Below, piece after piece: positions 585 to 43,611 of a DNA stretch of 64,000 bases. How positions within the stretch are numbered: position 1 is the stretch's first letter; each line of letters begins with the position of its first letter. A model generated the notes under the pieces. That model worked only from the letters and a program-made list of their open reading frames with translations. It was not told the DNA's origin and did not search any database. Position numbers and translations under genes: made by a program. The DNA comes from a virus, in IMG/VR virus record IMGVR_UViG_3300017714_002439, one strand, 5' to 3'.

Positions 585-595
585 TAAATATTAAT
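585..595 (+). promoter_or_regulatory. Putative late promoter TAAATA-N5 abutting the start codon (leaderless)
   Basis: TAAATA ttaat ATG(596); no room for a Shine-Dalgarno sequence. Confidence 0.65.
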
Positions 596-1528
596 ATGAA
601 CATAGCAATATATCAAACAGTAAACGCACATGCACCAGCAATTCACTGGTGGCTTGCAAATGATTCAAGATTTGGACCTCAAATATATTTGGGAAAAGAT
701 CCACTCAGAGACACTCCTACTACAAAAGATGTTATAGGAACTATTGTTCAAGAAATGAGAAATCCAAGCAGCGAATCCATTACAGAAGAACTTTATGAAA
801 TCCATCAAGAGTCATTGAGAAAAATGGAAAACCTACAAACTGACACTGGAGTATCATATTGCACAAAGGAATATTTTGAATATGGTAAAACTTTTGAATA
901 TCCGGTTTGGAGTAATTATTTTGGAAATACTAAAAATAAAACTGCCTCGCCATATTGTGATAAACTTATTTTTGCTAAGTCTAAAAAAGGCGAAGATCCT
1001 ATGTTCTATATAACGCAATATGCATACCAAGGATTTTTTGGAGTGAAGGATGTTAAATCACATAGTGAATTATGGTGGAAAGATCATATGTTCATGGATG
1101 GAAATACTGTAGGTTATGGTATGACTGAAAAATGGAAAGAAATATGGTATGCAAAATACGAAGATCAATGCATACAAGATTTCCATGATGGCAAACTAAA
1201 ATATATGTGGCAACTAAACCAATCTCATTGGGATTTGTTTCATTGTTTACTAGAAGGCAAAGAAAGTATTATACTTGACTATAGTGAAGAAAAATTGTTG
1301 GCACGTTGTGATGATACACAAGTATTAGTAAATCAAGCTAATAGATTAAACGCATTACCAGAAAATTCATTAGTTGTTGAAATAGACTGGTATGAAAATC
1401 CTAATATTATCCTTGATTATTTAGAGGTAAGCAATAGCCCTGAATTAACATCAGCAGTTGCTTTATACAAAGAACGATTTCTCAAAGTTCGAGAAGCATA
1501 CAACAAAAAATTTAACGCCAGCGTTTAA
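596..1528 (+). CDS. Hypothetical protein (310 aa)
   Basis: Long ORF with a TAAATA-N5-ATG start; no motif confidently recognised. Confidence 0.65.
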   Translation: MNIAIYQTVNAHAPAIHWWLANDSRFGPQIYLGKDPLRDTPTTKDVIGTIVQEMRNPSSESITEELYEIHQESLRKMENLQTDTGVSYCTKEYFEYGKTFEYPVWSNYFGNTKNKTASPYCDKLIFAKSKKGEDPMFYITQYAYQGFFGVKDVKSHSELWWKDHMFMDGNTVGYGMTEKWKEIWYAKYEDQCIQDFHDGKLKYMWQLNQSHWDLFHCLLEGKESIILDYSEEKLLARCDDTQVLVNQANRLNALPENSLVVEIDWYENPNIILDYLEVSNSPELTSAVALYKERFLKVREAYNKKFNASV

Positions 1529-1719
1529 TTCTTTTTTAGTTTTATATAAGACTCGTCTAATTTTATATAGATACAATCTACAGCAGAGTTCTTAGACTTT
1601 ACAATTACATGTGCCTTACTTAATTCAGCAACACAATCTTCTTTTGTAGGAAATGTGCCTAAGTGATAATTTTCCATGTTACCTCCGGCTGTTACACCTA
1701 ACCATAATAGTATCCACAT
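1525..1719 (-). CDS. Small hypothetical protein with hydrophobic N-terminus
   Basis: AGGTGG RBS before ATG; directly follows the upstream minus-strand gene. Confidence 0.55.
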   Translation of the reverse strand: MWILLWLGVTAGGNMENYHLGTFPTKEDCVAELSKAHVIVKSKNSAVDCIYIKLDESYIKLKKN

Positions 1720-1720
1720 C

Positions 1721-2203
1721 TTACCACCTACCCTGGCCTACACCTATAAGCCAAATAATAAAGCCAACAATTAATGCCACTCCTGCTGCGAGAGATAAAC
1801 CTATAATCCATTCAATGATTAATTGTTTACGTTCTTCTGCTTTATAAATTGCTTCTTTACGTTCGTTACGCATTTGTGCTTCTATTCCAACAATTTCTTT
1901 CCATGCAGAAGGTCCGTAAAATAAACTAATATGAGAACGTAATTCTTCACGCATTTCTTTTGCTTTTTGTTTATGCCCCCAAACTTCTAGAGCATTTTGC
2001 TCAACTTGGCTTGCACCAAATAGTTTTTTAAACATCGGAGGATTTTCTGCTTGTCGGTGTGCAAAATCTAAATCACTCATTGCTCCTGCCCACTTTTGTA
2101 ATGAGCCTGCCATATCATGTAAGTTTTTGCCTGTGTCTATAGCTGATTTAATGCCACGATATGCAGCGGTTGCCATCCCTATGGCGGATACTGGATCAAT
2201 CAT
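1721..2203 (-). CDS. Hypothetical coiled-coil protein with C-terminal transmembrane helix
   Basis: Start trimmed to MIDPVSAIG (2203); hydrophobic C-terminal segment LIIEWIIGLSLAAGVALIVGFIIWLIG. Confidence 0.65.
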   Translation of the reverse strand: MIDPVSAIGMATAAYRGIKSAIDTGKNLHDMAGSLQKWAGAMSDLDFAHRQAENPPMFKKLFGASQVEQNALEVWGHKQKAKEMREELRSHISLFYGPSAWKEIVGIEAQMRNERKEAIYKAEERKQLIIEWIIGLSLAAGVALIVGFIIWLIGVGQGRW

Positions 2204-2288
2204 TTTGGTGGTCACTTTCGTTGGTGGTATCAGATCGGATACATAAATATTTAAGTAGTATTTTATCGGCATAAACCAAGTATTTAAC

Positions 2289-2317
2289 TTGACATATGCA
2301 TAAAAACGTTATATACT
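2289..2317 (+). promoter_or_regulatory. Sigma70-type promoter for the yhhQ-proXW-tauD operon
   Basis: TTGACA-17 nt-TATACT. Confidence 0.75.
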
Positions 2318-2369
2318 TAACACACTTATTCATAATTTAAAGAGTAAGTCAACAAGGAGAAAAACTAAT

Positions 2370-2984: not shown

Positions 2985-2994
2985 CGGAGAAAAA

Positions 2995-3975: not shown

Positions 3976-3976
3976 C

Positions 3977-11123: not shown

Positions 11124-11649
11124 TTCTTACTCTTTCATAATTCTCTATATCTAATAGCCATACATTTTGATTTACATTAAATATCTCTTCTTTGCCTAAA
11201 CAACATACAATATCATATTTTTCTAGTGTTAAAAAAGTTTTATTAACTTTTTGCATTCTACCACTTTGATCAGTATCTGTGTTTGTTGTTATATATAAAA
11301 ATGGATGTTCAGACATTGAGTGACCTTTAGCCCATTCAATTTGGTATGGTAACTGACTATAAAAGCAATAACTTTGCATATGATATCTGTTTAATCCGCA
11401 TGGTCTACTTTCAAGTTGAGCACCACGGAATAATAGACGCCACCCATCTTTAAATGGATGTATTCCACTAAGACTAATAATTTCATCTTTACTGTCATGT
11501 GTTGCAAACCACATGCCACCTTCTTCTAAACACCATTCAAACTTCATGGCTTTAAGAGAGTTATTATTTTTATATCCTAACTCATCACATTTTGTTAAAA
11601 AATTCATTAACTGTGGAGTCGGACTGGTTAACTTGGTCGTGTATATCAT
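11113..11649 (-). CDS. Hypothetical protein, possible GNAT-like acyltransferase
   Basis: Start trimmed to MIYTTKL; strand pattern WFAT..IISLSGIHPF..WRLLFRG resembles a GNAT core, weakly. Confidence 0.45.
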   Translation of the reverse strand: MIYTTKLTSPTPQLMNFLTKCDELGYKNNNSLKAMKFEWCLEEGGMWFATHDSKDEIISLSGIHPFKDGWRLLFRGAQLESRPCGLNRYHMQSYCFYSQLPYQIEWAKGHSMSEHPFLYITTNTDTDQSGRMQKVNKTFLTLEKYDIVCCLGKEEIFNVNQNVWLLDIENYERVRNGS

Positions 11650-11655
11650 GTTTAT

Positions 11656-11684
11656 ATTATATAATAAGGTTGACAATTTGTCAA
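11656..11684 (-). promoter_or_regulatory. Sigma70 consensus promoter, leftward
   Basis: Minus strand TTGACA (11684-11679), 17 nt, TATAAT (11661-11656). Confidence 0.75.
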
Positions 11685-15441: not shown

Positions 15442-15452
15442 TAAATAGCATT
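15442..15452 (+). promoter_or_regulatory. TAAATA-N5 leaderless late promoter
   Basis: TAAATA gcatt ATG(15453). Confidence 0.6.
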
Positions 15453-15950
15453 ATGGACATATATAAAAAAGACAAAGCAGTAAGCGTAGCACTTTCGATA
15501 GCCTTAATATTGCTAGTAGCCTGCCTGTCTTGTATGGTTTATTCATATGTTAAATTACAACAATCACATCCATTAGAAAACTTACGTGGCGCAATACTAC
15601 AACCAGTTTATGATGGAGATCCAGTTTTAGAGTTTCAAGGCACTTACGATAGATATGTAAAATGTAATATGACTGGATTTGATGTTCATTTATACAATAA
15701 AGAAACCGCTGATATCATTACATTAACACCAGTTCATTTAGCAAAACCAGTTCCAGTAATACCTGAACCAGCAGAAGGTATAAAAACAGAATTTGCATTA
15801 TTCATGCCAAAAACAATATACCCAGGAACATGGAAACCTTCATTTACAGGTTTTTATATATGTCAATTAGGTATATTTGTAGATCAAAAAGTTCAAAAAG
15901 TTGAACCAGAAGCTTTTATAATCAAAAGCAACACTACCACAAAACAATAG
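15453..15950 (+). CDS. Hypothetical membrane-anchored protein
   Basis: N-terminal TM helix; start moved to 15453 on the TAAATA-N5-ATG motif. Confidence 0.65.
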   Translation: MDIYKKDKAVSVALSIALILLVACLSCMVYSYVKLQQSHPLENLRGAILQPVYDGDPVLEFQGTYDRYVKCNMTGFDVHLYNKETADIITLTPVHLAKPVPVIPEPAEGIKTEFALFMPKTIYPGTWKPSFTGFYICQLGIFVDQKVQKVEPEAFIIKSNTTTKQ

Positions 15951-16200: not shown

Positions 16201-16390
16201 AGACACATGTAGTATATGCGATAGTCCTTATGACGAGGATGCAGGTGGGATACAAGGATACTTTGGTATAATGCCAGTTACATTTTGTGAATGGTGTTAT
16301 AGTAGTATCTATGACATGCTTTATAAAGAAGTAGAAGAACATTACAAGGATAATCAAGAACCAGAACCTTGTGGAATGAGTAGAAAATAA
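16169..16390 (+). CDS. Small protein with two CxxC motifs (putative zinc ribbon)
   Basis: CSICD and FCEWC. Confidence 0.6.
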   Translation: MTNLQTQLQPKDTCSICDSPYDEDAGGIQGYFGIMPVTFCEWCYSSIYDMLYKEVEEHYKDNQEPEPCGMSRK

Positions 16391-16398
16391 ATACTTAT
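16388..16398 (+). promoter_or_regulatory. TAAATA-N5 leaderless late promoter
   Basis: TAAATA cttat ATG(16399). Confidence 0.55.
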
Positions 16399-16578
16399 AT
16401 GTTATACTTAATACTATTTTTCTGTGGAATACTTTTTACAATGGCTGTTGTATCAATTTGGATGCATGAAAAATCATATGATATACCAAAAATTCCTACT
16501 ACTTTATCAGAAGAAAAAGTAGATCAACTAAAATACAGAATATACAAGGCACAGCAAAGATTACAACAAAATAAATAG
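16399..16578 (+). CDS. Small membrane protein (59 aa), not in the ORF track
   Basis: MLYLILFFCGILFTMAVVSIW...QQNK; fills the gap between neighbours exactly. Confidence 0.6.
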   Translation: MLYLILFFCGILFTMAVVSIWMHEKSYDIPKIPTTLSEEKVDQLKYRIYKAQQRLQQNK

Positions 16579-16582
16579 TTGT
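16572..16582 (+). promoter_or_regulatory. TAAATA-N5 leaderless late promoter
   Basis: TAAATA gttgt ATG(16583). Confidence 0.6.
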
Positions 16583-17548
16583 ATGTTATATAAACGCATA
16601 CACACAATCCAATTTGATTTAAATGTTATATGTAATGCATTCTGCCCAGGATGCCATAGATACGCAGTAGTAGATGATGAAATGTATCTCAATCCATATC
16701 TACCATTTAATACTAGTGTAGATTTAAGCATTGTAGAACGTGTAATGGAAAATACTAGGTTAATTGATAACGTAGTAATTGATATGGTTGGGTTAGTAGG
16801 TGAGCCAATTGCACACAATGAGTTTTTAGATATAGTTGATATCATATATGGGCATAAACCTAATGCACGTATACACATTCACACAAATGGTGGATTACGC
16901 TCAGTAGAATTTTTCAAAGAACTTGCACATAAGTTAAATCATCAATCGTGGATTATATTCTCAATTGATGGATTAGCGGATACAAATCACAAATATAGAA
17001 TTGGAGTTATATGGGAAAAGGTAATGGAAAATGCAAAAGCATACATAGATGCAGGAGGAAAAGCAATATGGAAGTCTTTAGATTTTCCGTGGAATAGTCA
17101 CCAAAAAGAAGATATGCAATCATTATCAATTGATATGGGATTTAAAGGTTTTAGGTGGGAGAAAAATAGAGATGCTAATACTAAATGGATGGAAAAGTGG
17201 GTAAAAGCTGCAGAAAAGTTTAATCAAAAAACAAAAGCAAAACTAGGATACAAACAAGTATTATATCAACAACACTTTAATAGTATAAAAAATAGATGCT
17301 TTGATGATGAAGCAATTTACATAAATTATCAAGGTAAAGTTTTGCCATGTTGTATGTTTAATGCATCATTAACAGATGAGTCATATATGGACGAAATGAA
17401 ACCCTATATTAATGAAAATAATGAGAATTGGAACAGTTTAGAGCACAATACACTAGAAAATGTGATGAATAATAAATGGTGGCACAAGCTGTATGGCCAT
17501 TTAGATACTAAACCATGCAGTGTTTGTATCCATGCCTGTGATACATAA
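16583..17548 (+). CDS. Radical SAM enzyme with C-terminal SPASM/twitch-like domain
   Basis: CNAFCPGC (CxxxCxxC), GEP, HTNG, FSIDG, VLPCC and a C-terminal CSVC...C. Confidence 0.85.
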   Translation: MLYKRIHTIQFDLNVICNAFCPGCHRYAVVDDEMYLNPYLPFNTSVDLSIVERVMENTRLIDNVVIDMVGLVGEPIAHNEFLDIVDIIYGHKPNARIHIHTNGGLRSVEFFKELAHKLNHQSWIIFSIDGLADTNHKYRIGVIWEKVMENAKAYIDAGGKAIWKSLDFPWNSHQKEDMQSLSIDMGFKGFRWEKNRDANTKWMEKWVKAAEKFNQKTKAKLGYKQVLYQQHFNSIKNRCFDDEAIYINYQGKVLPCCMFNASLTDESYMDEMKPYINENNENWNSLEHNTLENVMNNKWWHKLYGHLDTKPCSVCIHACDT

Positions 17549-20266: not shown

Positions 20267-20277
20267 TAAATACTGTT
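20267..20277 (+). promoter_or_regulatory. TAAATA-N5 leaderless late promoter
   Basis: TAAATA ctgtt ATG(20278). Confidence 0.65.
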
Positions 20278-21282
20278 ATGCTTTATAAAGAAATTGATAC
20301 TGTTGAATTTGATCTCAATACAGTATGTAACAGTTATTGTCCCCCTTGCCATAGATATACAATTCAAGACGGTGAGCTATTTCATAACCCATATGTAAAA
20401 CTAGGCGTTAATTTAGAATTAGATGTAATTGAGAAAGTATTCTGTAATGAACGTTTAGCAGATGATTGTTTTGTTGATCTAGTAGGACTTGTAGGTGAAC
20501 CAATTGCACATCCAAAGTTTATGGAAATAGTAGATATTATTTACAAACATAGACCAAACGCAGCAATTAACTTACATACAAATGGTGGATTACGAACTGA
20601 AAAAATGTTCTATGACTTAGGTAAAAAGTTTAACAAACACAGTTGGATTAAATTTTCATTAGATGGACTAGAAGATACAAACGGTATATATCGTATTGGA
20701 GTAGATTACCATAAAGTAATAAGAAATATGCGAGCATTTATAGATGGTGGTGGACGAGCAATATGGAAGTTTGTTACATTTGAATGGAATAAACATCAAG
20801 TAGAAGAAGCAAAAGCGTTATCAGAAGAATATGGCTGTTCTAAATTCCAACAAGATTGGGATGTCAATGATATGAGTATAAAGCAATATATGAAAGCAGC
20901 TAACACAAAAATTAATTATAAGGTTCAGGCTACCAAAGGTGATAATAGATTTCCTAATTTACCTGATAGAACATCTTATAAGATTGTAGATAGATGTTTT
21001 ACATATAAAAAGATATATGTAAATGCACATGGTTATGTTATTCCATGTTGTATGTTTAATGGTGCAATGACATATGATTCTATGCGTAATCAAACACTAA
21101 ATTTTATTAAAGAAGATAGAGCTGAATATTGGAATAGTTTATATCATAACGATTTAGAAACTATAATGAGTGATACATGGTGGCAAAAATTAAACGATAG
21201 TTTTAATGGTAATGCATGTGATATATGTATTGAACAATGTGGCAAGAATAACATTCCAAAAAACGAACGCTATTTTGATTGA
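20278..21282 (+). CDS. Radical SAM enzyme with SPASM/twitch-like domain
   Basis: CNSYCPPC, LVGEPIAH, HTNGGLR, VIPCC; close paralogue of 16583. Confidence 0.85.
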   Translation: MLYKEIDTVEFDLNTVCNSYCPPCHRYTIQDGELFHNPYVKLGVNLELDVIEKVFCNERLADDCFVDLVGLVGEPIAHPKFMEIVDIIYKHRPNAAINLHTNGGLRTEKMFYDLGKKFNKHSWIKFSLDGLEDTNGIYRIGVDYHKVIRNMRAFIDGGGRAIWKFVTFEWNKHQVEEAKALSEEYGCSKFQQDWDVNDMSIKQYMKAANTKINYKVQATKGDNRFPNLPDRTSYKIVDRCFTYKKIYVNAHGYVIPCCMFNGAMTYDSMRNQTLNFIKEDRAEYWNSLYHNDLETIMSDTWWQKLNDSFNGNACDICIEQCGKNNIPKNERYFD

Positions 21283-23176: not shown

Positions 23177-23187
23177 TAAATACTAAT
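23177..23187 (+). promoter_or_regulatory. TAAATA-N5 leaderless late promoter
   Basis: TATAAATA ctaat ATG(23188), full T4-like octamer. Confidence 0.7.
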
Positions 23188-23883
23188 ATGAAAATACATG
23201 ATATCTTAGAACAGATGATGGACGAAGGTCCAAATGATCCAGCTATATTTAAAGCAGTATTTCTTGCTGGTGGTCCTGGATCTGGTAAAAGTTATGTGGC
23301 AAGTAAAATTCTTTCAGGTTTAGGTCTCAAGCCAGTAAACAGTGATGACATCTACGAATACCTAGCTGACAAACAAGGTATTGATTTAGGAGATCCAGAT
23401 GCAGTTGCTAGTGATAGAGGACAAGAACTCAGAAACAAAGCCAAAGAATTAACTAATAAAAGACAAAATGTATACATAGACGGTCGTATTGGATTAATTA
23501 TTGATGGCACAGGTAAAGATGTGCAAAAGGTAAAAGAACAAAGTTTAATACTAAAAAATCTAGGATATGAATGTATAATGTTATTTGTAAACACAAATCT
23601 AGATGTTGCACAAAAACGTAATTTAGAAAGACCACGCAAACTGAAACCAGAAATGGTTGATAATATGTGGCGTAAAGTTCAAGAAAATATTATGAAGTTC
23701 CAACAGGTATTTGGCGCCAGTAACTTTCACGTTGTTGATAATAGCGGAGGGTTAGAGGACCCTGAACGTAAAGAAAACTTTGACAATGTATACAAGAAAG
23801 TTAGAGCGTTTATTTCATCTCCACCAGCTAGTCATACCGCTAAAAAGTGGTTAGATGACGCTAAAAGTAAAAATACCACTTAA
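23188..23883 (+). CDS. P-loop kinase (zeta-toxin/AAA_33-like)
   Basis: AGGPGSGKS Walker A, VNSDD, IIDGTG and RNLERPR. Confidence 0.75.
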   Translation: MKIHDILEQMMDEGPNDPAIFKAVFLAGGPGSGKSYVASKILSGLGLKPVNSDDIYEYLADKQGIDLGDPDAVASDRGQELRNKAKELTNKRQNVYIDGRIGLIIDGTGKDVQKVKEQSLILKNLGYECIMLFVNTNLDVAQKRNLERPRKLKPEMVDNMWRKVQENIMKFQQVFGASNFHVVDNSGGLEDPERKENFDNVYKKVRAFISSPPASHTAKKWLDDAKSKNTT

Positions 23884-28077: not shown

Positions 28078-28084
28078 GTAAAAA

Positions 28085-33023: not shown

Positions 33024-33059
33024 ATAATTACAAACATGGAATGCTTATAGTATTCCTGC

Positions 33060-33126: not shown

Positions 33127-33148
33127 ATTATATGTAGTTTTAATTGGC

Positions 33149-33159
33149 TAAATACTATT
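33149..33159 (+). promoter_or_regulatory. TAAATA-N5 leaderless late promoter
   Basis: TAAATA ctatt ATG(33160). Confidence 0.6.
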
Positions 33160-34128
33160 ATGAGTAAAGTCAATCTAATACCACAGTTAATTTCAAAACT
33201 ATCTGAAGCAACTTCGCAAGAACAAAAGTATAAGATAGTAAAGAAGTATGAAAAAGAAACACTTTTTAAGCGTATTCTTTTATTTTCATACAATCCTTGG
33301 ATAAATTTTAAATTACAACACTTTGTTCCAAAACATATGGGTAAAAAGTTTGGTATGGGTATGAGTAGATTTATGCATATGTTTGAAGAAATTATTGCTG
33401 GAAAACTAGATCCCAAAGATGCAGAGTTTGGATTTAATATGGCATTTTTACATGTTAATACAGAAGAAGCACCTATTTTGTTAGGTATAATCAATCAATC
33501 ATTAGATGTTGGATTAGAAATAGAAACAATTAATAGAGTTTGGCCAAACTCTATATCAGACTATCCATTACGAACAGCTAAAGCAGGAAAACATAAAGAC
33601 TTTACTAACTTTCCAGCATCTATACAAACAGTAAGTAAAGGTTTACGAGTTAATATTATTGTTACAGATAACACAGTTCAATATAGACAAAAAGATGGAA
33701 CTGTAATAGAAGGTTGGGATTGTTGGAATGAACAATTTCTTAATTTAGCACAAGGGCAAGGAACCGTGTTTGACGGGCATGCCGTAATTGCAGAAAACAA
33801 TAAAATAGCAGAAACAGACAATACTAAAGTATTAGAATCTGATGCAGAAAATATTAGATTTATATTTTGGGATGTAATACGTTATGATGGATTTATTTCC
33901 GGAAAAGATACTCGTATAGGTTATAACTGGCGTTACAATGGACTTGAGCATATGATGATGTTAGCATATGCTAAAAACCCAAAACCATGTTATGATATAT
34001 TAAAAGCAGAATTAGTAGGATCACAAGAACAGCTAGATACAGCAATAAAGAATTACAGCAAGGCAGTTATTAGATCTTTAGATGATACATGGAGTAATGG
34101 TGAAAGTGATGGTGAAATTATTTGCTAG
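33160..34128 (+). CDS. ATP-dependent DNA ligase paralogue (T4 gp30-like N-terminal and adenylation domains), predicted inactive
   Basis: INRVWP, FPASIQTVSKGLR (compare FPAFAQLKADGAR), FDGHAV and FWDVI; no OB domain. Confidence 0.7.
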   Translation: MSKVNLIPQLISKLSEATSQEQKYKIVKKYEKETLFKRILLFSYNPWINFKLQHFVPKHMGKKFGMGMSRFMHMFEEIIAGKLDPKDAEFGFNMAFLHVNTEEAPILLGIINQSLDVGLEIETINRVWPNSISDYPLRTAKAGKHKDFTNFPASIQTVSKGLRVNIIVTDNTVQYRQKDGTVIEGWDCWNEQFLNLAQGQGTVFDGHAVIAENNKIAETDNTKVLESDAENIRFIFWDVIRYDGFISGKDTRIGYNWRYNGLEHMMMLAYAKNPKPCYDILKAELVGSQEQLDTAIKNYSKAVIRSLDDTWSNGESDGEIIC

Positions 34129-34444
34129 AAGTAGGTGGGCTTATAATTTGTTCTAGTCTATGGTTTTGTATTTTAGTATTTTTAATATAACGCCATACTT
34201 TACCACGACCATTGTCAATTTCAAATGTAGTTTCTGAATAGCCTATACTAATAATAGTAGCACGTTCTCCATCTAAGTATACTACATCACCTGGCTCAAA
34301 TCCAGGTTTCATTTTCCAGCGTATACTAGCTACTAAATCTCCTACAAGTTCTTTGAACCATAGAGCAATTACACCTGATATAAGCAATGCTAATGCAGGT
34401 GTTAGGTATGTTGTAATGCTTTGTTCTACTATAGCGGTATCCAT
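34118..34444 (-). CDS. Small membrane protein with MscS beta-domain-like segment
   Basis: One TM helix followed by FEPGDVVYLDG..IISIG..T..IKN. Confidence 0.55.
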   Translation of the reverse strand: MDTAIVEQSITTYLTPALALLISGVIALWFKELVGDLVASIRWKMKPGFEPGDVVYLDGERATIISIGYSETTFEIDNGRGKVWRYIKNTKIQNHRLEQIISPPTSSK

Positions 34445-34455
34445 ATTACTATTTA
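34445..34455 (-). promoter_or_regulatory. TAAATA-N5 leaderless late promoter
   Basis: Minus strand TAAATA gtaat ATG(34444). Confidence 0.6.
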
Positions 34456-34495
34456 TGCAATGTATAAATATATATGTAGTTAACTAGGAAATAAA

Positions 34496-35296
34496 ATGAG
34501 AATAGCACTTTGTATAGCAGGAGAAACTAGAGATTATAATGATCACTTTGGACCTGATACAATCATAACACACTTAATGGAAAATGGACACACTGTTGAT
34601 GTATATGGACACACATGGAGCCATTGTGAAAAACCAGTTCAAGATGTTTTTAAATTTAAAAGATTACTTATAGAAGATCAGCTTAAGATAGTAGGAGATT
34701 GGGTTAATGTAAATCCACAACAACGACAATTTTCATATTGGGATAATGAGAATAATTGCGAAGGACCATTAGAAGATATAGATGTTACAAGAGCAAAAAT
34801 AGGACAGCATATTAGTGGATTAAGATGTTTACAAATGCCAGAAACAAATGATTATGATGCGTTTATTAGATGGCGATGGGATTTAAAACTAGAATGGGAC
34901 CAACATTGGATCAACCGAAAATTAGCAAATATCTATAGTCAAGATGATAAAAATAAAGTGGTAAAACTCATGTTTGATCAATGGATAGATTATCTAGAAA
35001 CTAAAAATGACCTACCAGTAGTCCTTACGGATGGATATGGATGGGTTGGACAATATAATTGGACAATTCAAGATACCCATTTTTATTTAAATAAAGTAGC
35101 ACATAGAAATATAAAAAATCTTAATTGGGAAACAGCAATTGAAAAAGTATGGAATGAAACATGTAAATGTTCTTATCATATGCTATGGAATCATTTATTA
35201 ATAAGAGCAGCAAAATGCATGATAAGACAACCAATGCCCAACGTGACAGTATTCACAAAGACGGAAAGACATAAACAAAATGAGTTACATAGATAA
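34496..35296 (+). CDS. Hypothetical protein, possibly glycosyltransferase-like
   Basis: MRIALCIAGETR, VYGHTW and FIRWRWD resemble a phage family with a K/RIA.C.SG..R N-terminus. Confidence 0.55.
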   Translation: MRIALCIAGETRDYNDHFGPDTIITHLMENGHTVDVYGHTWSHCEKPVQDVFKFKRLLIEDQLKIVGDWVNVNPQQRQFSYWDNENNCEGPLEDIDVTRAKIGQHISGLRCLQMPETNDYDAFIRWRWDLKLEWDQHWINRKLANIYSQDDKNKVVKLMFDQWIDYLETKNDLPVVLTDGYGWVGQYNWTIQDTHFYLNKVAHRNIKNLNWETAIEKVWNETCKCSYHMLWNHLLIRAAKCMIRQPMPNVTVFTKTERHKQNELHR

Positions 35297-36089: not shown

Positions 36090-36137
36090 ATACATTTGTA
36101 GATATAATCTACCAGTAAACCACAAAGGAGAACTAAT

Positions 36138-36500
36138 ATGTATCACACAGAATCAATGATCCAAATGATGGAAGATATGCAACGTCAAGCAGCTGAAATG
36201 GAAAAGAATGTTAAAGACATGATGGAAATGGAAGGCAGAGCATGGGGCATAGAACTAGATAAGCGTAAAAATGCACGTGACCTAATGCATGAATTAATGG
36301 AAGCACAACAATCAGCACAAAATCCAACTGATATGACATGGGCATATGTGCCACATGACATAGTAGAATATGATTGTGAGCCACAAGAATGGGGCAATGA
36401 TATGCACTCACCATGGAACGGATTAGACGGACAAATGCTAACAGAGTCTGATTTATGGCACGAAGGTGGCGACATGGATGGCCACGAAGACCACGAGTAA
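36138..36500 (+). CDS. Acidic Met-rich hypothetical protein
   Basis: AAGGAG RBS; 15 Met in 120 aa; terminator follows. Confidence 0.7.
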   Translation: MYHTESMIQMMEDMQRQAAEMEKNVKDMMEMEGRAWGIELDKRKNARDLMHELMEAQQSAQNPTDMTWAYVPHDIVEYDCEPQEWGNDMHSPWNGLDGQMLTESDLWHEGGDMDGHEDHE

Positions 36501-36512
36501 ATTATTAAATAG

Positions 36513-36535
36513 AAAGGTGCTTCAGGCACCTTTTT
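36513..36535 (+). terminator. Intrinsic terminator
   Basis: AAAGGTGC-ttcag-GCACCTTT followed by TT. Confidence 0.75.
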
Positions 36536-36553
36536 AAGTGGAAGGAAAGTCCA

Positions 36554-36754
36554 ATGACCAAGTTCACAGAACTAAGTGACCAAGATCTATACTATATAGA
36601 AAAACTATTGGGACAAGAATTGGGTAAAGAAATTGAAGCTCGAAAAACATGGAATGATCCAATTAAAGAAGGTAAACCAAGTCAAATAAGAACATGCATA
36701 AATGCAGTTCGCAGTCTAAGAACTACAAATAAATTAAAATCTGAAAAATGGTAA
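36554..36754 (+). CDS. Small hypothetical protein
   Basis: GGAAGG RBS; 66 aa. Confidence 0.55.
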   Translation: MTKFTELSDQDLYYIEKLLGQELGKEIEARKTWNDPIKEGKPSQIRTCINAVRSLRTTNKLKSEKW

Positions 36755-36755
36755 A

Positions 36756-37826
36756 TTAGACATCAAGGCACTCTTTCCAATCTATTTTTCTAATAGCAGA
36801 AAGAGTGTCATAATAGTTAATCATTTTCTCTCTCAAATCATTATAATCATCTTGTGTGCTATTAAATTCAAGTAACTTGTTCAGTTTCTTGTTATTTAAA
36901 CTTCTTGCCTTTTCAATAATATGTGGTTGTGCTAAAAATGGTTGTAAGTGTTCGGGCTTATAAACACTATTAACCGACCATTCTATATCACGAACTTTAC
37001 ACCATTCTATAAGTTGAGGTATACTATCAATTCCACCTGCCTGTAAACTAGTTTCTACATATACCCATACATTATTATACTGTAACATTTTATCAACATT
37101 ACGTTCAATTTTATTCCATGTAAGAGGCCAACGAATAAAGTCATTAGCCTTACCATATGCATCTATACTAACATGTATAGAAACATGCACAAACTTTTTT
37201 AGTGTTTCCTGTAAGCGTTTACTAAAGCTACTACCATTAGATGTTATTTGAATATAGATATTAGGATTTAATTCTACAAGTTGATGTAGAAATTCATCTA
37301 GTAATCCTCTTACTGTTGGTTCACCACCTGTAAATCTAATACGTTTGGCCTTTGATGCAAATTGAACAATCTCTTTAAATTTTTCGTTATTTTCGAACCA
37401 ACTTATATTAGCAGGATCAGTAAAATATCTAAACTCTTTTAATTTTGGATTTGCTTTGTTTTCAGCATCTAGTAGACTACTATTATATGCACTACACATA
37501 ATACAACCAGCATTACATATATTACCAAACTTAATTTCCATGTCATGTAGATTAAATTCTTCTTGGTCAGGGTATCGTCTATTTCCATTATAAACCATCC
37601 CCTCAATTCCAGCTTGTTCATCTAATATACACTCTGTGCAACCAACAGCAAACCTATCTGCCTTCATATCAGTCATTAGGTTATTATAGAATTCACTGTT
37701 TAAGTAATCGTCTATACTATTAGTTGCAATATCTACTTGGTTGTCTTGTTCTTCCCATGCACAACAGGGTCTGTATTTGCCTGTAGAGCTTATGCTTACA
37801 TGGTTAGATGGCCATTTACACTTCAT
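36756..37826 (-). CDS. Radical SAM enzyme with N-terminal twitch/SPASM-like Cys cluster
   Basis: N-terminal CKW..YRPCC..CTEC, then CNAGCIMC, FTGGEP, TSNG and SIDAYG. Confidence 0.85.
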   Translation of the reverse strand: MKCKWPSNHVSISSTGKYRPCCAWEEQDNQVDIATNSIDDYLNSEFYNNLMTDMKADRFAVGCTECILDEQAGIEGMVYNGNRRYPDQEEFNLHDMEIKFGNICNAGCIMCSAYNSSLLDAENKANPKLKEFRYFTDPANISWFENNEKFKEIVQFASKAKRIRFTGGEPTVRGLLDEFLHQLVELNPNIYIQITSNGSSFSKRLQETLKKFVHVSIHVSIDAYGKANDFIRWPLTWNKIERNVDKMLQYNNVWVYVETSLQAGGIDSIPQLIEWCKVRDIEWSVNSVYKPEHLQPFLAQPHIIEKARSLNNKKLNKLLEFNSTQDDYNDLREKMINYYDTLSAIRKIDWKECLDV

Positions 37827-37837
37827 GTTAGTATTTA
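37827..37837 (-). promoter_or_regulatory. TAAATA-N5 leaderless late promoter
   Basis: Minus strand TAAATA ctaac ATG(37826). Confidence 0.6.
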
Positions 37838-37906
37838 TGGTAAATACAAGTGGTTGCATAATATGTAACATGTAGTATAATTATAACTATTTTATAGGAA
37901 ATTATT

Positions 37907-38314
37907 ATGGCATATAGCGAAAAAGTGCTAGACCATTACAACAATCCAAGAAATGTAGGTAAGTTTGATCCCAACGAAGAGAATATCGGAACTGGTATGG
38001 TAGGTGCACCTGCGTGTGGAGATGTAATGCGTTTACAAATAAAAGTAACAGAAGATGGCATTATTGAAGATGCAAAGTTTAAAACATATGGGTGTGGAAG
38101 TGCAATTGCTAGTTCAAGTATGGTAACAACTATGCTTAAAGGAATGACACTAGATGAAGCACAAGAAATTAAAAATACAACAATCGTTGAAGAACTAGCA
38201 TTACCGCCAGTTAAGATTCACTGTAGCGTATTGGCAGAAGATGCCATTAAGGCAGCAGTAAGAGATTACGGCGATAAAAAGCAAAAAATAAACGCAAAGC
38301 CTGTAGAGATATAA
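37907..38314 (+). CDS. iscU: Fe-S cluster scaffold IscU
   Basis: YSEKVLDHY.NPRNVG, APACGDVM, FKTYGCGSAIAS and PPVKIHCS. Confidence 0.96.
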   Translation: MAYSEKVLDHYNNPRNVGKFDPNEENIGTGMVGAPACGDVMRLQIKVTEDGIIEDAKFKTYGCGSAIASSSMVTTMLKGMTLDEAQEIKNTTIVEELALPPVKIHCSVLAEDAIKAAVRDYGDKKQKINAKPVEI

Positions 38315-38397
38315 GAAATAATATTGGTTAATTCATACCCAATGAAAAATAAATACTGATAAGTTAAAAATAACTTTAGCATTTAGGAGAAGATTTA

Positions 38398-39984
38398 ATG
38401 GCACAAAAAGCATTCATGGCTGATGCAGGAATTCGTTTAGGCGATTGGAGCATTGTAGAATTAGGAAACGGTGATATGCAAGTATCTAATACGCATGTTA
38501 TATCGGGTTCACAAAAAGCATTTAGAGTAGATAAAGGATTACGTATCGGCGACTGGAGAATGACAGTAAACAACGACGGAGATATGTTATTATCTGAAAC
38601 AGCAATAGTAGGCTCTCAAAGACCTTTCATAGCAGATGCTGGAGTTAAGGTTGGAGCATGGACACTTCATCCAACAGTTGATGGTGATTTATATGCAGAG
38701 AAAAATGCAGTAATGGTAAATTATACATTATCATGTAATTACTCAGCAGTCAACGAAGGTGGATCAGTTATAATATCTTTGGCAACAACAGGCGTAGCAG
38801 CTGGAACTAGTGTGCCATATACAATAACTGGAGTTACTAGTGCTGACATCAATGGTGCCAGTCTTACAGGAAACTTTGTAACAGGAACAACAGATTCAGT
38901 AACTTTAAATATTACAGCTGATTCTTCTACAGAAGGAACAGAAACTTTACAACTAGCATTGGATAACGGTAACTCAAGTAAGAGTGTTACAATAAATGAT
39001 ACAAGCACAATTGATTTATCACAATATAATTATACAGTTGCTATTACTGACTCAAATGGTAATGCAGTAACTAGTGTTAATGAAGGTGAAAATTATAATA
39101 TCACTACTACAACAAATGCACCAAACGGAACTTATCTATGGGTTCATTTAGTAGAAAACAACGAAAATGAACAAGTAGGTGATCCAGCTTGGATTGACTG
39201 GTTAATGGATGATACACAATCAATTGCAAGACAACCAGTGGTAACAAATGGTGGAACTACTACAACACTTTCTATGACAGCTGATCAAACTACTGAAACT
39301 GGATATGAGAAATTCACAGTTAAAATTTCAATAGCAGACGAATGGGCAGATGTTGCAGATCATTATGTAACACAGACAGCTGAAATTACAATTAATGATA
39401 CATCACAAACATCAAGCTCTGGAACACCAGCACAAGCACGTGACCGTTACTTACGTATTGCAGCCTCTAGTTATAATACTAATATATCATCTTATATAGC
39501 AGACCATGTTGACATGGATAGTGACCACCCTGATTGGACTTCAACTGGTATGACTACGGATGTAACACTTGTTAAGGTAGTGCATGCTCCATCAAGCACA
39601 ACACTAGAATTAGGCGATACAATACCGTCTAGTGTGTTTACCTTATCAGGTAACAGTGCATATCACACTTGGGGATTAGATGATACTGCATACTCAACTA
39701 GCCTTCATGCACCAAATGGATATCATATATCAGGATTTACAAAAGATCCAGGTAACGGAAATTATACAAGATGGAACATTGATTATGACGGTTCACAATT
39801 CGGTGCCAGAGAAGGGGTCATTGACCAATTGTTTGAAGGACAAGTAATTTCAAATTATGAAAATACTCCATGGATTACTTTTTACGATGCTGATGGCTAT
39901 AAATATGAGTTTTCTCATCATAGAAGATCCACAAATGGTTACGCTGACCAGTTCGAATATAACAGCACAACACAAGTATATTAA
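38398..39984 (+). CDS. Probable virion structural protein with tandem N-terminal repeats and Ig/Calx-beta-like domains
   Basis: Three roughly 36-aa repeats (K/RAF..D.G.R.G.W) then two Thr/Ser-rich SVNEG...TINDTS units. Confidence 0.65.
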   Translation: MAQKAFMADAGIRLGDWSIVELGNGDMQVSNTHVISGSQKAFRVDKGLRIGDWRMTVNNDGDMLLSETAIVGSQRPFIADAGVKVGAWTLHPTVDGDLYAEKNAVMVNYTLSCNYSAVNEGGSVIISLATTGVAAGTSVPYTITGVTSADINGASLTGNFVTGTTDSVTLNITADSSTEGTETLQLALDNGNSSKSVTINDTSTIDLSQYNYTVAITDSNGNAVTSVNEGENYNITTTTNAPNGTYLWVHLVENNENEQVGDPAWIDWLMDDTQSIARQPVVTNGGTTTTLSMTADQTTETGYEKFTVKISIADEWADVADHYVTQTAEITINDTSQTSSSGTPAQARDRYLRIAASSYNTNISSYIADHVDMDSDHPDWTSTGMTTDVTLVKVVHAPSSTTLELGDTIPSSVFTLSGNSAYHTWGLDDTAYSTSLHAPNGYHISGFTKDPGNGNYTRWNIDYDGSQFGAREGVIDQLFEGQVISNYENTPWITFYDADGYKYEFSHHRRSTNGYADQFEYNSTTQVY

Positions 39985-40007
39985 TAATTTTCAACTTATC
40001 TAAAATT

Positions 40008-40031
40008 AAAAGGGAGCTTAGGCTCCCTTTT
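40008..40031. terminator. Bidirectional intrinsic terminator
   Basis: AAAAGGGAGC-ttag-GCTCCCTTTT between convergent genes. Confidence 0.85.
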
Positions 40032-40452
40032 ATGATATATTACACCAATACTGTTCCATACCAGGTTTAAGAGAATCACAACCTCGTATAAGCAATTCCA
40101 ACATTTCAGAAAGGTCTCCAGCTACACCTGTAATAATTGCTATCAGACAAAACAATATAAAAAGAGTTATAGGACTTGTAAGAATAAGTAACCAATAAGT
40201 TCTAAATATTCCGTGTCCATGTTCTTTACGATATTCTCTTTTACGAGCAAACCAACGAGCAATGCCTTTTATTAATCGTTTTATTCCACCAGTAAACCAA
40301 TCACCTATTAAATGTCTAATAACTCTAACAACAATAAGAATAGGACTTGAAATTACTTCCCATACTAAAAGCAATGCGTCAACAATAAGATCAACTACAT
40401 GATCTATTGTCCACCAATCTTTAAATCTTTGCCATCTGCTTTTTTGTTCCAT
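40030..40452 (-). CDS. Membrane protein
   Basis: Start trimmed to MEQKSRW; two hydrophobic segments. Confidence 0.65.
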   Translation of the reverse strand: MEQKSRWQRFKDWWTIDHVVDLIVDALLLVWEVISSPILIVVRVIRHLIGDWFTGGIKRLIKGIARWFARKREYRKEHGHGIFRTYWLLILTSPITLFILFCLIAIITGVAGDLSEMLELLIRGCDSLKPGMEQYWCNIS

Positions 40453-40463
40453 GTTACTATTTA
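40453..40463 (-). promoter_or_regulatory. TAAATA-N5 leaderless late promoter
   Basis: Minus strand TATAAATA gtaac ATG(40452). Confidence 0.65.
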
Positions 40464-40471
40464 TAAAAAGG

Positions 40472-40500
40472 TTGACAAGCAAGATATCTTACAGTATGCT
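40472..40500 (+). promoter_or_regulatory. Sigma70 early promoter with perfect AAGATATCTT spacer palindrome
   Basis: TTGACA agcaagatatcttacag TATGCT. Confidence 0.75.
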
Positions 40501-40526
40501 AAACATAGTTAACAAAAGGAACTAAT

Positions 40527-40844
40527 ATGTCTATCAAAGATATAGTAATGATTGCCTTAGCTGGTTCTATATACATATCAGCTACAGGTATTGCAAAAGC
40601 AGATAATACTATTATAAGAGATTGTCAAGTAAAACATAATTACAACGGTCTCAATGAAACAAAAACATGGAGCAATATTGCTACATGTATTGTAACAGAG
40701 AAAAATAAAATACGATTTGCAGAAGAAGATCGATTATGGGCATTCGTAAAAGCTAATCCACACTATCGTTATCCTGGTTCAGCATTGCCTAATGGTAAAA
40801 TTTTACCTTTGGATCCTGGTCATTTTTCTTCAAAAAAATGGTAA
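40527..40844 (+). CDS. Hypothetical secreted protein
   Basis: Signal peptide ending AKA; AAGGA RBS. Confidence 0.7.
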   Translation: MSIKDIVMIALAGSIYISATGIAKADNTIIRDCQVKHNYNGLNETKTWSNIATCIVTEKNKIRFAEEDRLWAFVKANPHYRYPGSALPNGKILPLDPGHFSSKKW

Positions 40845-40861
40845 TTTCTAAAGAAAAAAGG

Positions 40862-40890
40862 TTGACAACCAAGACATCTTACTATATACT
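40862..40890 (+). promoter_or_regulatory. Sigma70 early promoter with AAGA-CA-TCTT spacer
   Basis: TTGACA accaagacatcttacta TATACT. Confidence 0.8.
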
Positions 40891-40921
40891 ATAAGTATAG
40901 TTAATAAAAAAAGGAACTAAT

Positions 40922-41278
40922 ATGTTTGTAGGATATCAAGAAGAAATGTTTAAAAGTGAATGGGGTGTTAATCCTGGATTTAAGCATCTAGCAGATCAAC
41001 TATGTGACATGCTTCCACTACAAGGTAGTGTTGAAAACCCACGTAGCACTAACAAACAATTAGAAAAATTCCGTAAAGCACAAAACGTTATATACGATTT
41101 ATTTAACAATGGATTGTGTAATAGACGAACTGAATACCGTAACATGTTTGGTGAAGTTCCTATTCCAGGTTACGGACATGAAATTAGTAACATTCGTTGG
41201 AGTCAAGTAGAAGATGAAGTTGAAGCAAACTTTACTCCTATTATTTTAGCAGCGGCAAAAGAACAAGGATTGTCATAA
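40922..41278 (+). CDS. Conserved phage hypothetical protein
   Basis: AAGGA RBS; LEKFRKAQNVIYDLFNNGLCN motif. Confidence 0.75.
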   Translation: MFVGYQEEMFKSEWGVNPGFKHLADQLCDMLPLQGSVENPRSTNKQLEKFRKAQNVIYDLFNNGLCNRRTEYRNMFGEVPIPGYGHEISNIRWSQVEDEVEANFTPIILAAAKEQGLS

Positions 41279-41466
41279 TGATACGTATTTTTAATTCATC
41301 AGTACCAGGCGAACGTTGGATCTCACTAGACGAAGTTAATGTTGTAACACAGAAGATTTGTCCTGTTCAAAGTTCACCTTATATACTATTTGAACACAAT
41401 GATTATCCATTAGGTGCTTTACGTGCCGAATATAATGGAGAACATTGGTCATGCGATTTAGATTGA
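41278..41466 (+). CDS. Small hypothetical protein
   Basis: TAATG coupling. Confidence 0.6.
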   Translation: MIRIFNSSVPGERWISLDEVNVVTQKICPVQSSPYILFEHNDYPLGALRAEYNGEHWSCDLD

Positions 41467-41615
41467 GAGGCAACATGCAACATCCTAATACCATAATATT
41501 AACTAAAAGTAGTATTTTTGGCCTAGCACTAACAGGTCTAATGATTTGTCTAAATATTTACTTTTTCTTTTAAACATAGGTTGACTTTTATACATTTTCG
41601 TGTATAAATAATATT

Positions 41616-41866
41616 GTTAACGTTGAAGCAACGTGGACACATACTGGACCTCGGGGCAGTACCGAGCAGCTCCACCATAAACACATTGCACAGTTAGTGT
41701 GCTTATGATGGGGCTGAAATAGGATCGACGGGTGTGAGAAGTGAAGTGGAGTTAACCGGTTGAGTGCGTTATTGCTCAAAATTCATAATTGCAAACGATA
41801 ATTATGCGCCAGAGATGGCATTAGCGGCGTAAAGCCACTATGAGGTAGCTATACCTTATCACCCAA
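41616..41866 (+). ncRNA. ssrA: Circularly permuted (two-piece) tmRNA; tag ANDNYAPEMALAA
   Basis: Acceptor piece ends CTCGG-GGCAGTA-CCGAG-CAGCTCCACCA (41677); 32-nt intervening segment; coding piece starts GGGGCTG (41710) giving G3:U70; tag frame 41791-41832. Outer ends are approximate. Confidence 0.92.
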
Positions 41867-41876
41867 AATAGTATGG

Positions 41877-41905
41877 AAAAAGGTCGCCTAGTGCGGCCTT
41901 TTTTT
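41877..41905 (+). terminator. Intrinsic terminator after tmRNA
   Basis: AAAAAGGTCGC-ctagt-GCGGCC followed by TTTTTTT. Confidence 0.8.
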
Positions 41906-41912
41906 GTGACTA

Positions 41913-41923
41913 TAAATACTAGC
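41913..41923 (+). promoter_or_regulatory. TAAATA-N5 leaderless late promoter
   Basis: TATAAATA ctagc ATG(41924). Confidence 0.7.
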
Positions 41924-42967
41924 ATGATATACTCAAAGAATCCTGTAATTTTACAACTAGAACTTAGTAGTATGTGTAACGCATTATGTTTAGGTTGTCA
42001 ACGTGTTGATCCAAACACATATAATACAGTGCATCCAGATATCCCAAAAAAAGAAATGATATCAGTTGATACAATATACAAACTGATTAGTAGTCCACGA
42101 ATGTCTACAGTAGAAGAAATACAATTTTGTGGAACCATAGACGAACCGTTAATGCATCCGCAATTTATGGATATTATAGATGCAATGTATAAAACGAATC
42201 CTGAACTTGAGATGGAAATACACACAAACGGAAGTTTACGTTCTACTGATTACTGGAAAGACTTAGCAGTTAAACTATCTAAGTTTAGAAAACATAAAGT
42301 ATTATTTGGCATAGATGGGTTAACCGATACACATAGTATATACAGGCAACAAACAGATTTTGAAACTATTATAAAAAATGCATCACACTTTATACAATCA
42401 GGTGGAAATGCACAGTGGCAATATCTTATATTTCCATGGAACAAACATCAAGTTGAAGAAGCACGTAATATGAGTAAACAGTTAGGATTTAAACAGTTTA
42501 AAACACGCAATGATAGAAGTGGAGTAAGCGAAGAAGGATTAAAACGAGTAAAAGAAATACAAAAACACCCAGTAACGTCTATTATGGGATCTGACGCAAG
42601 TGTATACAATGGATATAAAATAAAGTGTATGAATCACGAAGAAGATATGTATCATGTTTCATATGATGGCAGGCTTTGGCCATGTTGTTATTTTGGTAAT
42701 GTCAGATACATGGGTCCAAAATTATATAATGAATTTAAACAAAGAATATTTGGAGTATATGGTGAAGATTTTAATTTGCTTACTAAACACACAGTAGAAG
42801 AAATATTAGATTCAGAGTTATATACAAATGACCTAATCGAGTCTTGGAATAATCCAGTAGGTTGCGGTAGCAAAGATAAAGTAAATCGTTGTGCAATGTC
42901 ATGTAGCGTTAAAGCACTTGAAACAAGACCAATAGCAACTGCACACGAAGTAACAACATTTGATTAA
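41924..42967 (+). CDS. Radical SAM enzyme with SPASM/twitch-like domain
   Basis: CNALCLGC, DEPLMHP, HTNG, FGIDG and LWPCC; start moved to MIYSK. Confidence 0.85.
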   Translation: MIYSKNPVILQLELSSMCNALCLGCQRVDPNTYNTVHPDIPKKEMISVDTIYKLISSPRMSTVEEIQFCGTIDEPLMHPQFMDIIDAMYKTNPELEMEIHTNGSLRSTDYWKDLAVKLSKFRKHKVLFGIDGLTDTHSIYRQQTDFETIIKNASHFIQSGGNAQWQYLIFPWNKHQVEEARNMSKQLGFKQFKTRNDRSGVSEEGLKRVKEIQKHPVTSIMGSDASVYNGYKIKCMNHEEDMYHVSYDGRLWPCCYFGNVRYMGPKLYNEFKQRIFGVYGEDFNLLTKHTVEEILDSELYTNDLIESWNNPVGCGSKDKVNRCAMSCSVKALETRPIATAHEVTTFD

Positions 42968-42975
42968 ATAACACT
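42965..42975 (+). promoter_or_regulatory. TAAATA-N5 leaderless late promoter
   Basis: TAAATA acact ATG(42976). Confidence 0.6.
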
Positions 42976-43611
42976 ATGAGATATAATGCATATGACATTT
43001 CAATAACTACATATTGCCAGTTATTCTGTGCTGGATGTCAACGCAATGATGAAGATAATAATCTATCAAAAGAACTAGTGCAAGAGCATATGTCGTATGA
43101 GACATTTTGTATGATTATGAATCAGATTGATACAATGCCAGTTTCTCATATACAACTATGTGGTGAACTAGGTGATCCTATGATGCATCCAGATATAGAT
43201 AGAATATTAGAACGTATTTTAAAATCAAATTATACAATTATGATTAATACAAATGGTGCATTGCGTAGCCCAAGTTGGTATACAAAATGGGCAAGTAACC
43301 CTAATATTAAAATTTATTGGGGAATTGATGGATTAGATCACGTAACAAATGATAAGTATCGACGAGGAGCAAACTTTAAAAAAGCATGGGATAATATGTC
43401 TGCATGGTTTAAAAATAAAGGAAAAGGTGAATGGCATTTTATATTGTTTAGTTGGAATCTACATCAAGTTCCAGAGGTTGCGAGAATTGGAAGAGAAGAA
43501 CTTAATTGTAAAGTTCTTTACAAACTGACGCCAAGTAATACAGGTAAAGATGGATTAACTAATGAATATTGGGATCAAGCAAAACAACTGGTAGATAGAT
43601 ATGCAACATGA
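42976..43611 (+). CDS. Radical SAM core domain (split gene, N-terminal part)
   Basis: CQLFCAGC, GDPMMHP, NTNG and WGIDG; ends before the SPASM region. Confidence 0.8.
   Translation: MRYNAYDISITTYCQLFCAGCQRNDEDNNLSKELVQEHMSYETFCMIMNQIDTMPVSHIQLCGELGDPMMHPDIDRILERILKSNYTIMINTNGALRSPSWYTKWASNPNIKIYWGIDGLDHVTNDKYRRGANFKKAWDNMSAWFKNKGKGEWHFILFSWNLHQVPEVARIGREELNCKVLYKLTPSNTGKDGLTNEYWDQAKQLVDRYAT

Follow-up and report, generated by a model that had tools for sequence, protein, structure and literature searches.

In the viral DNA stretch IMGVR_UViG_3300017714_002439 from IMG/VR (64,000 nucleotides, referred to below in its full length as the window), twelve genes carry the hexamer TAAATA exactly five nucleotides upstream of their ATG start codon. 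Genes with this layout, TAAATA-N5-ATG (below: the header), are probably leaderless transcription units in which T4-type late promoters are fused to start codons, and three further genes appear to be organised in the same way behind sigma70-type promoters. We put the probability of this reading at about 0.7; the sigma factor, the start sites and the mode of translation are predictions from the DNA sequence. An earlier note on the same DNA had listed twelve such sites lacking a Shine-Dalgarno (SD) sequence. All of them are present as listed and they are the only matches in the window (Table 1).

The unusual feature of TAAATA in the window is its placement, not its abundance. The hexamer is not over-represented, with 67 and 34 copies where base composition predicts about 100 and 58. 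An ATG follows at spacing 5 in 12 of these 101 copies, while the other spacings between 0 and 30 averaged 1.8 matches and none exceeded 5 (Poisson p = 5e-7). In 100 dinucleotide-preserving shuffles the layout occurred 3.15 ± 1.76 times and no shuffle reached 12. The layout described in the earlier note is hence real, enriched, and takes the form of a lone spike at spacing 5.

All 12 header ATGs open an open reading frame (ORF) of 59–356 codons, with an in-frame stop 4–44 codons upstream, and an upstream in-frame start is absent in seven of the 12. The start codon behind the header is always ATG (12/12); GTG or TTG at spacing 5 after TAAATA opens no gene. Since five nucleotides cannot hold an SD, none is present at these genes. 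Across the gene starts, the spacing between the nearest upstream TAAATA and an ORF-initial ATG is bimodal, with one group at 5 (rarely 8) and the other at 14 or more, where an SD intervenes. Spacings of 9–13 leave too little room for an SD and too much for leaderless initiation; they were observed at no gene start in the window and at three (spacings 9 and 10) across related contigs and the Pelagibacter phage HTVC008M. Three header boxes are located in short divergent regions and four sites are tight gene junctions (15453, 16399, 16583 and 42976). TAAATA-N8-ATG without SD was found at two more genes, bS21 at 28085 (28071-28087, plus strand) and ORF 2272 (2270-2291, minus strand), which would have leaders of 3 nt.

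Conservation of the layout was examined in nine related IMG/VR loci retrieved via the ligase gene, of which three long contigs (G001–G003) were examined completely. The related contigs are 60–68 kb in length with a CheckV completeness of 17–19%, which corresponds to a genome of about 350 kb. Genome-wide pattern counts were made on these relatives and not on the phage of the window, about 20% of whose genome is represented. Orthologues of the header genes were found by protein similarity and their upstream sequences were read afterwards, so that the test is unbiased. TAAATA-N5-ATG was present at 28 of 34 orthologous starts, and in one more, at a contig edge, the header is still visible. Box and distance are constant, while the letters of N5 drift and the upstream 30 nt are just 42–50% identical in several families. 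For the ligase gene, box and spacing are kept in 8/8 orthologues (72–93% amino acid identity) with four N5 variants (ctatt, gtagt, catat and ctagt); N5 of the radical-SAM gene 16583 reads gttgt, aaact or taatt among its orthologues; and ORF 15453 has the header in 3/3 orthologues with upstream DNA of 42% identity. The lone spike at spacing 5 also recurs in G001, G002 and G003, with 9, 10 and 15 matches, respectively. As judged from these comparisons, the layout is non-random, conserved and under selection.

The header alternates with an SD according to the position of the gene. Orthologues of gene 34444 that come first after the divergent region have the header. Four orthologues are preceded by an additional gene of their operon and show GAGGAATAAATT-ATG instead, i.e. 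a GAGGA/AAGGA SD and no header. Among all orthologous starts, one (L003) has TAAATA-N2-ATG. The comparison also bears on gene starts: the earlier note had stated that the motif corrects several starts of the ORF track, and five were corrected (15453, 33160, 37826, 40452 and 41924). Four of these are backed by orthologues, in which the longer upstream frames of 15453, 33160, 41924 and 37826 are absent; for 37826, a 1-nt indel between relatives disrupts that frame. For ORF 40452, no orthologue was found among the relatives examined.

The spacing fits the known geometry of the T4 late promoter. This promoter, TATAAATA, occupies positions -13 to -6 (PMC1524935), and an ATG five nucleotides after the box therefore has its A at +1. 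The extended consensus is A-TAAATA-S-T-A-A-Y, with S-T-A-A-Y as the consensus of N5. TAAATA is exact at every site, position -12 is A in 17 of 24 sites pooled with HTVC008M, and -13 is variable. A conserved -35 element is absent upstream of the box, in line with the low upstream identity given above, and the downstream segment is A/T-rich. At -1, a pyrimidine is found in 12/12 header sites compared to 26/48 SD-led genes (p = 0.002), and with the HTVC008M sites included the count is 23/24. A pyrimidine followed by a purine is the usual start-site preference. At 596, 33160 and 41924, and also at 6280 and 75559 of HTVC008M, the box comes 4–8 nt after a terminator hairpin. The hairpins before 596 and 41924 were seen by RNAfold, while a simple terminator scan missed both; the box of 41924 lies 6 nt behind the terminator of the phage transfer-messenger RNA (tmRNA), which consists of a hairpin of -19.7 kcal/mol and T7. 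The mean folding energy of nucleotides 1–40 was -1.27 kcal/mol for header genes and -2.75 kcal/mol for SD-led genes, which is a weak effect (one-sided Mann-Whitney p = 0.04).

A second promoter class shows the same behaviour at a distance of its own. Two sigma70 promoters with an ATG at about +1, as pointed out in the earlier note (11649 on the minus strand, and 44549), are real, and a third was found at 49927. The -10 hexamer occupies -12 to -7, so that with exactly 6 nt in between the A of the ATG is again placed at +1. This layout was found in three cases in the window and in nine in relatives and HTVC008M; T4 has none. G001 has the layout of 49927 at 43706, and the G001 orthologue has that ATG only. 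An excess of TATAAT-N0-ATG in HTVC008M was dismissed, as it merely reflects the AT-rich spacer following SDs.

Table 1 Header sites, sigma70-type sites and leadered contrast sites in the window
Feature	Coordinates	Strand	Gene and remarks
TAAATA-N5-ATG	585..598	+	310-aa ORF 596-1528; directly behind hairpin (-13.7 kcal/mol) and T6 run following tRNA-Ala; G003 orthologue with same header
TAAATA-N5-ATG	15442..15455	+	165-aa ORF 15453-15950; stop of upstream gene 2 nt before box; replaces ORF-track GTG start 15420
TAAATA-N5-ATG	16388..16401	+	59-aa ORF 16399-16578 (MLYLILFFCGIL...); TAA of box is stop codon of upstream gene
TAAATA-N5-ATG	16572..16585	+	Radical-SAM gene 16583-17548; box and spacing kept in 3/3 orthologues
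TAAATA-N5-ATG	20267..20280	+	Radical-SAM gene 20278-21282; directly behind 9-bp hairpin; 3/3 orthologues
TAAATA-N5-ATG, full TATAAATA	23177..23190	+	Zeta-toxin/AAA-type kinase-like gene 23188-23883; kept in 3/3 orthologues, upstream identity 50%
TAAATA-N5-ATG, CTAAATA	33149..33162	+	ATP-dependent DNA ligase gene 33160-34128; behind stem and T6; replaces TTG start 33112
TAAATA-N5-ATG	34442..34455	-	108-aa ORF 34444-34118; within 51-nt divergent intergenic region
TAAATA-N5-ATG	37824..37837	-	Radical-SAM/SPASM gene 37826-36756; replaces ATG start 37871; kept in 2/3 orthologues
TAAATA-N5-ATG, TATAAATA	40450..40463	-	140-aa ORF 40452-40030; replaces TTG start 40482
TAAATA-N5-ATG, TATAAATA	41913..41926	+	Radical-SAM/SPASM gene 41924-42967; replaces ATG start 41873; 2/2 orthologues
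TAAATA-N5-ATG	42965..42978	+	Radical-SAM gene 42976-43611; TAA of box is stop codon of upstream gene
TTGACA-N17-TATAAT-N6-ATG	11647..11684	-	Predicted leaderless start 11649; same layout in G002 and G003
TTGACA-N16-TATAAT-N6-ATG	44515..44551	+	No SD; predicted leaderless early gene 44549-45463
TTGACA-N17-TATAAT-N6-ATG	49892..49929	+	Predicted leaderless start 49927, two codons inside ORF-track start 49921, which abuts the -10 box
Contrast: TAAATA, leader, ATG	34465..34498	+	25-nt stretch with AGGA; ATG 34496
Contrast: TAAATA, leader, ATG	51423..51453	+	Leader with AAGGAAG; ATG 51451 of virion structural protein
Contrast: TAAATA, leader, ATG	61966..61999	+	Leader with AGGAG; ATG 61997

The same box also stands before genes with ordinary leaders. 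As the earlier note had it, the TAAATA-driven genes 34496, 48203, 61588 and 61997 have leaders containing AGGA/GGAG, and these are 22–50 nt in length. More generally, a box with an AGGAG-type leader of 14–50 nt precedes other genes, including that of the virion structural protein at 51451, and the box was likewise found upstream of two ORFs without an assigned function further downstream, at 57302 and 61997. With SD-led genes, a virion gene among them, behind it, the box behaves as a promoter and not as a ribosome-binding site. The ATG coincides with the predicted +1 in about 12 of the roughly 28 box-led units in the window.

The pattern was also counted in ten T4-superfamily reference genomes against a reversed-pattern control. 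No excess over the control was observed in T4, Syn9, P-SSM2, S-PM2, KVP40, RaK2, Atu_ph07, PA5oct and phiM7, and none of the T4 matches is an evident gene start. HTVC008M (NC_020484), on the other hand, has 14 matches compared to 4 in the control, with a spike at spacing 5, and 12 of the 14 are annotated starts of coding sequences. Its header genes include those for the DNA end protector, head closure, baseplate tail tube cap, baseplate wedge, tape measure and tail completion proteins, and its annotation lists a late sigma factor and a sliding clamp. Between the divergent end-protector and head-closure genes, the gap of 26 nt reads CAT-N5-TATTTA-tatc-TAAATA-N5-ATG. These 26 nt are filled by the two headers, which leaves no room for leaders. 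IMG/VR relatives with protein identities down to about 45% show this arrangement as well, in a few cases with spacing 6; some lineages have leaders instead. Concerning the sigma70-type geometry in HTVC008M, the annotated start of endonuclease V (76476) fits N6 exactly, and the annotated start of CobS (89857) lies 7 codons upstream of an ATG (89878) that fits it. Cultures exist of both HTVC008M and its host, Pelagibacter ubique HTCC1062.

In the mechanism that we propose, 12 units of the window would have a T4-type late promoter, with TAAATA as its invariant core, joined directly to the start codon. The RNA would begin with 5'-pppAUG, and the ribosome with initiator tRNA would bind this 5'-terminal AUG directly, without an SD. 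Genes downstream in operons and other late units would rely on ordinary AGGAG leaders. The three sigma70-type promoters would act likewise, with a -10 box, 6 nt and the ATG. The earlier note had proposed the T4-type late promoter, the A of the ATG as +1 and leaderless translation, and this part is favoured by the geometry, the conservation, the switch to SDs, the second promoter class, the pyrimidine at -1, the preceding terminators and the 26-nt regions. Its further proposal, that an 11-nt header allows insertion of genes anywhere, is not established, with two anecdotes to go by. ORF 16399-16578 is absent from the closest relative G003 (around 18753, minus strand); the indel, bounded by TAAATA (at 16388 of the window), starts right after the hexamer, and a second header follows the ORF. 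The other case is the gain or loss of the header, in exchange with an SD, at the 34444 orthologue. That the header aids gene shuffling is speculation.

Several observations weigh against the leaderless late class. Homologues of gp55, gp33 and gp45 were not found in the examined part (about 20%) of this phage's genome, and a tblastn search with gp55 of HTVC008M yielded no match in the window and three relatives, which are each 17–19% complete. The class is termed putatively late because of its motif, its position before virion genes and analogy; late genes do not classically encode DNA ligase or radical-SAM enzymes. Radical-SAM paralogues account for five of the twelve header genes, and the header therefore belongs to about 8 or 9 independent gene families. 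Four of the 12 sites have the stop of the preceding gene within or adjoining the box and could therefore be served by termination-reinitiation. The RNA evidence consists of assembled contigs, which cannot show transcript starts and give patchy cover; six RNA runs contained parts of the window, four of which were compared. Fragments of the phage occur in marine metatranscriptome assemblies of several studies, including oligo-dT libraries (X15–X19; window 33050-43040). One contig (X15), of 266 nt and without mismatches, has its first base at 33149, which is the initial T of the ligase box and 11 nt upstream of the ATG, and another (X18) spans the divergent region 34444/34496. Neither is what a strictly leaderless RNA with +1 at the ATG predicts; DNA carry-over, read-through or an assembly break at strain variants may account for them.

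The start of contig X15 at the first T of the box, with TTTAAT about 6 nt upstream of that point, would suit a different explanation, in which TAAATA-N5 is a short translation signal, rich in A and U and independent of an SD, or else a conserved 5' untranslated region of 11 nt. Transcripts would then start at or upstream of the box, and the ribosomes of an SD-poor host would recognise it. N5 has a consensus of its own, and SD-like motifs before just 13% of the ORF starts in a SAR11 genome make SD-independent initiation normal in a candidate host. Nevertheless, we regard this as unlikely. The same box stands 14–50 nt upstream of SD-led genes, virion genes included, and S-T after the box is frequent in these leadered copies too. 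Operon-internal orthologues swap the box for an SD and do not keep it, and a different motif, TATAAT, behaves likewise at the distance specific to its promoter type. In addition, boxes are found behind terminators and take up 26-nt divergent regions that have no space for another promoter.

The stop codons at the tight junctions permit a mixed origin, which we consider to be just as improbable. At 15453, 16399, 16583 and 42976, where an upstream TAA or TAG lies inside the box or 2 nt before it, the box would mainly be a stop codon with AT-rich filler that allows termination-reinitiation on polycistronic RNA, and only the terminator-following or divergent sites would be leaderless. The N2 spacing in orthologue L003 and TAAATAATG junctions at 62513 and 17973 (minus strand) would agree with this. 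However, orthologues of 15453 and 16583 keep the exact N5 despite differing upstream sequence and, in G003, a differing upstream gene arrangement. Coupling needs neither a fixed stop-to-start distance of 8 nt nor ATA after TAA, and T4 late promoters are themselves often situated at the ends of upstream genes. As for chance and duplication, an AT-rich genome and five radical-SAM paralogues copied together with their upstream bases could have inflated the count: the five have similar N-termini (MLYK, MIYS), and TAAATA as such is not enriched. Such an artefact is very improbable, as 0 shuffles reached 12, the seven non-paralogous genes alone outnumber the expected matches, the paralogues have unrelated sequences upstream, and the layout recurs at unrelated HTVC008M genes and in relatives down to about 45% protein identity.

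Compared to T4-type late promoters, which depend on gp55, gp33 and the gp45 clamp, the predicted promoters share the core sequence, the absence of a conserved -35 element, the A/T-rich stretch after the box and the position before virion genes. The variability at -13 resembles that in RB49, KVP40 and S-PM2 (PMC1524935, PMC2988020, PMC5259590). Variants of the late box include ATAAATA in CBB and GAP32, cultured Rak2-like relatives with a gp55-like sigma factor (PMC5259590), and CTAAATA in Aeh1. T4 differs in that its late units have SD-containing leaders, with no gene start at spacing 5 and distances clustering at 12–29 nt.

By analogy, the closest described case is the Thermus phage phiYS40, whose middle and late transcripts are mostly leaderless according to the summary of Sevostyanova et al. 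(2007) in PMC3594737. As summarised there, phiYS40 is a large myovirus with most post-early mRNAs devoid of a leader, as predicted here, and a shift in initiation factors (IF2 up, IF3 down) that favours leaderless translation was proposed for it. It differs, going by the same summary, in a host from another phylum where leaderless mRNAs are common, in the promoter type and in start sites that were mapped experimentally, whereas the phage of the window has T4-type and sigma70-type promoters, an IF3 and bS21 of its own and starts predicted from sequence. In lambda cI transcribed from pRM (PMC10491246, PMC9031893), the start codon is at the 5' end of the transcript, AUG is required and an SD is lacking, as proposed for the header genes; cases of this type are isolated regulatory genes, whereas the present class is genome-wide and spans two promoter types. 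The 'group C' genomes of GeneMarkS-2 show the same computational signature, in which first genes have a promoter box a short, constant distance upstream and internal genes have a ribosome-binding site (PMC6028130), and the bimodal spacing and the alternation of header and SD at the 34444 orthologues correspond to what defines that group. Group C comprises cellular genomes with a sigma70 -10 box 6–8 nt before operon-first genes, not a phage-specific late promoter (PMC6028130). The literature searched, which was not exhaustive, contained no description of a leaderless late class for T4-like phages, cyanophages or pelagiphages. The present case is new in its type of promoter, in the lineage of the phage and in being apparently confined to certain marine phages.

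If the leaderless reading is correct, T4-type late promoters can be routinely fused to start codons, outside the T4 paradigm, and leaderless translation would rank among the main modes of gene expression in some of the ocean's most abundant viruses. The prediction of late promoters failed in pelagimyophages (PMC7029224), which the reading would explain. It would also yield a simple rule for correcting gene starts, applicable to the five in the window and one of the sigma70 type in HTVC008M, and offer a reason for phage-borne bS21 and IF3. A wider scenario is possible but doubtful. Two distant T4-superfamily marine lineages, this Rak2-like giant and the HTVC008M-type pelagimyophages, might have convergently shifted a large share of their early and late units to leaderless mRNAs as one element in taking over translation in an SD-poor host such as SAR11. 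The phage bS21 (core to pelagimyophages) and the IF3 of the giant would then retune ribosomes between leaderless first genes and strongly SD-led internal genes, with the header as a portable unit for shuffling.

With respect to such a host, an SD-like tetramer at -18 to -3 was found at 13% of first-ATG ORF starts in the SAR11 genome HTCC8051 (first 400 kb, L220–L239), compared to 43–45% in HTVC008M and the phage of the window, and 58% in T4. SDs are thus far more common in the phages than in this candidate host. A crude scan of the same 400 kb revealed no clear peak of a -10 box 6–7 nt before starts, and the data accordingly show low SD usage and not host-wide leaderless usage.

The window has a G + C content of 34%, with densely packed genes on the plus strand, and features four tRNA genes. 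Its virion proteins are nearest to those of Atu_ph07, PA5oct and PBECO4, i.e. Rak2-like and related jumbo phages; a megablast search of 20 kb of the window against cultured phages gave no match. Five radical-SAM genes are located within 27 kb, two of them with a SPASM domain and all header-led (Table 1); such genes are reported to be typical of pelagimyophages, too (PMC7029224). IF3 and bS21 are encoded at 27559-28348. A comparison of the IF3 protein with bacterial genomes yielded matches in unrelated phyla only, and hence no host clue.

A permuted tmRNA gene of the alphaproteobacterial type is present at 41564-41923 on the plus strand, with the tag ANDNYAPEMALAA. As a host clue the tag was discarded: its sole match in the genome collection is a 30-kb contig (L092) of a 'Rickettsiales' metagenome-assembled genome, which is itself a related phage contig and was probably mis-binned. 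Two SAR11 genomes have the tag ANESYALAA, which differs from that of the phage, and the tmRNA therefore gives no tie to SAR11. The tmRNA-bearing window also encodes a ClpX-like ATPase (26358-27557, plus strand) and a 769-aa Clp-type ATP-dependent protease ATPase (53899-56208, plus strand), which together with the tmRNA suggests a phage-borne tagging-and-degradation set.

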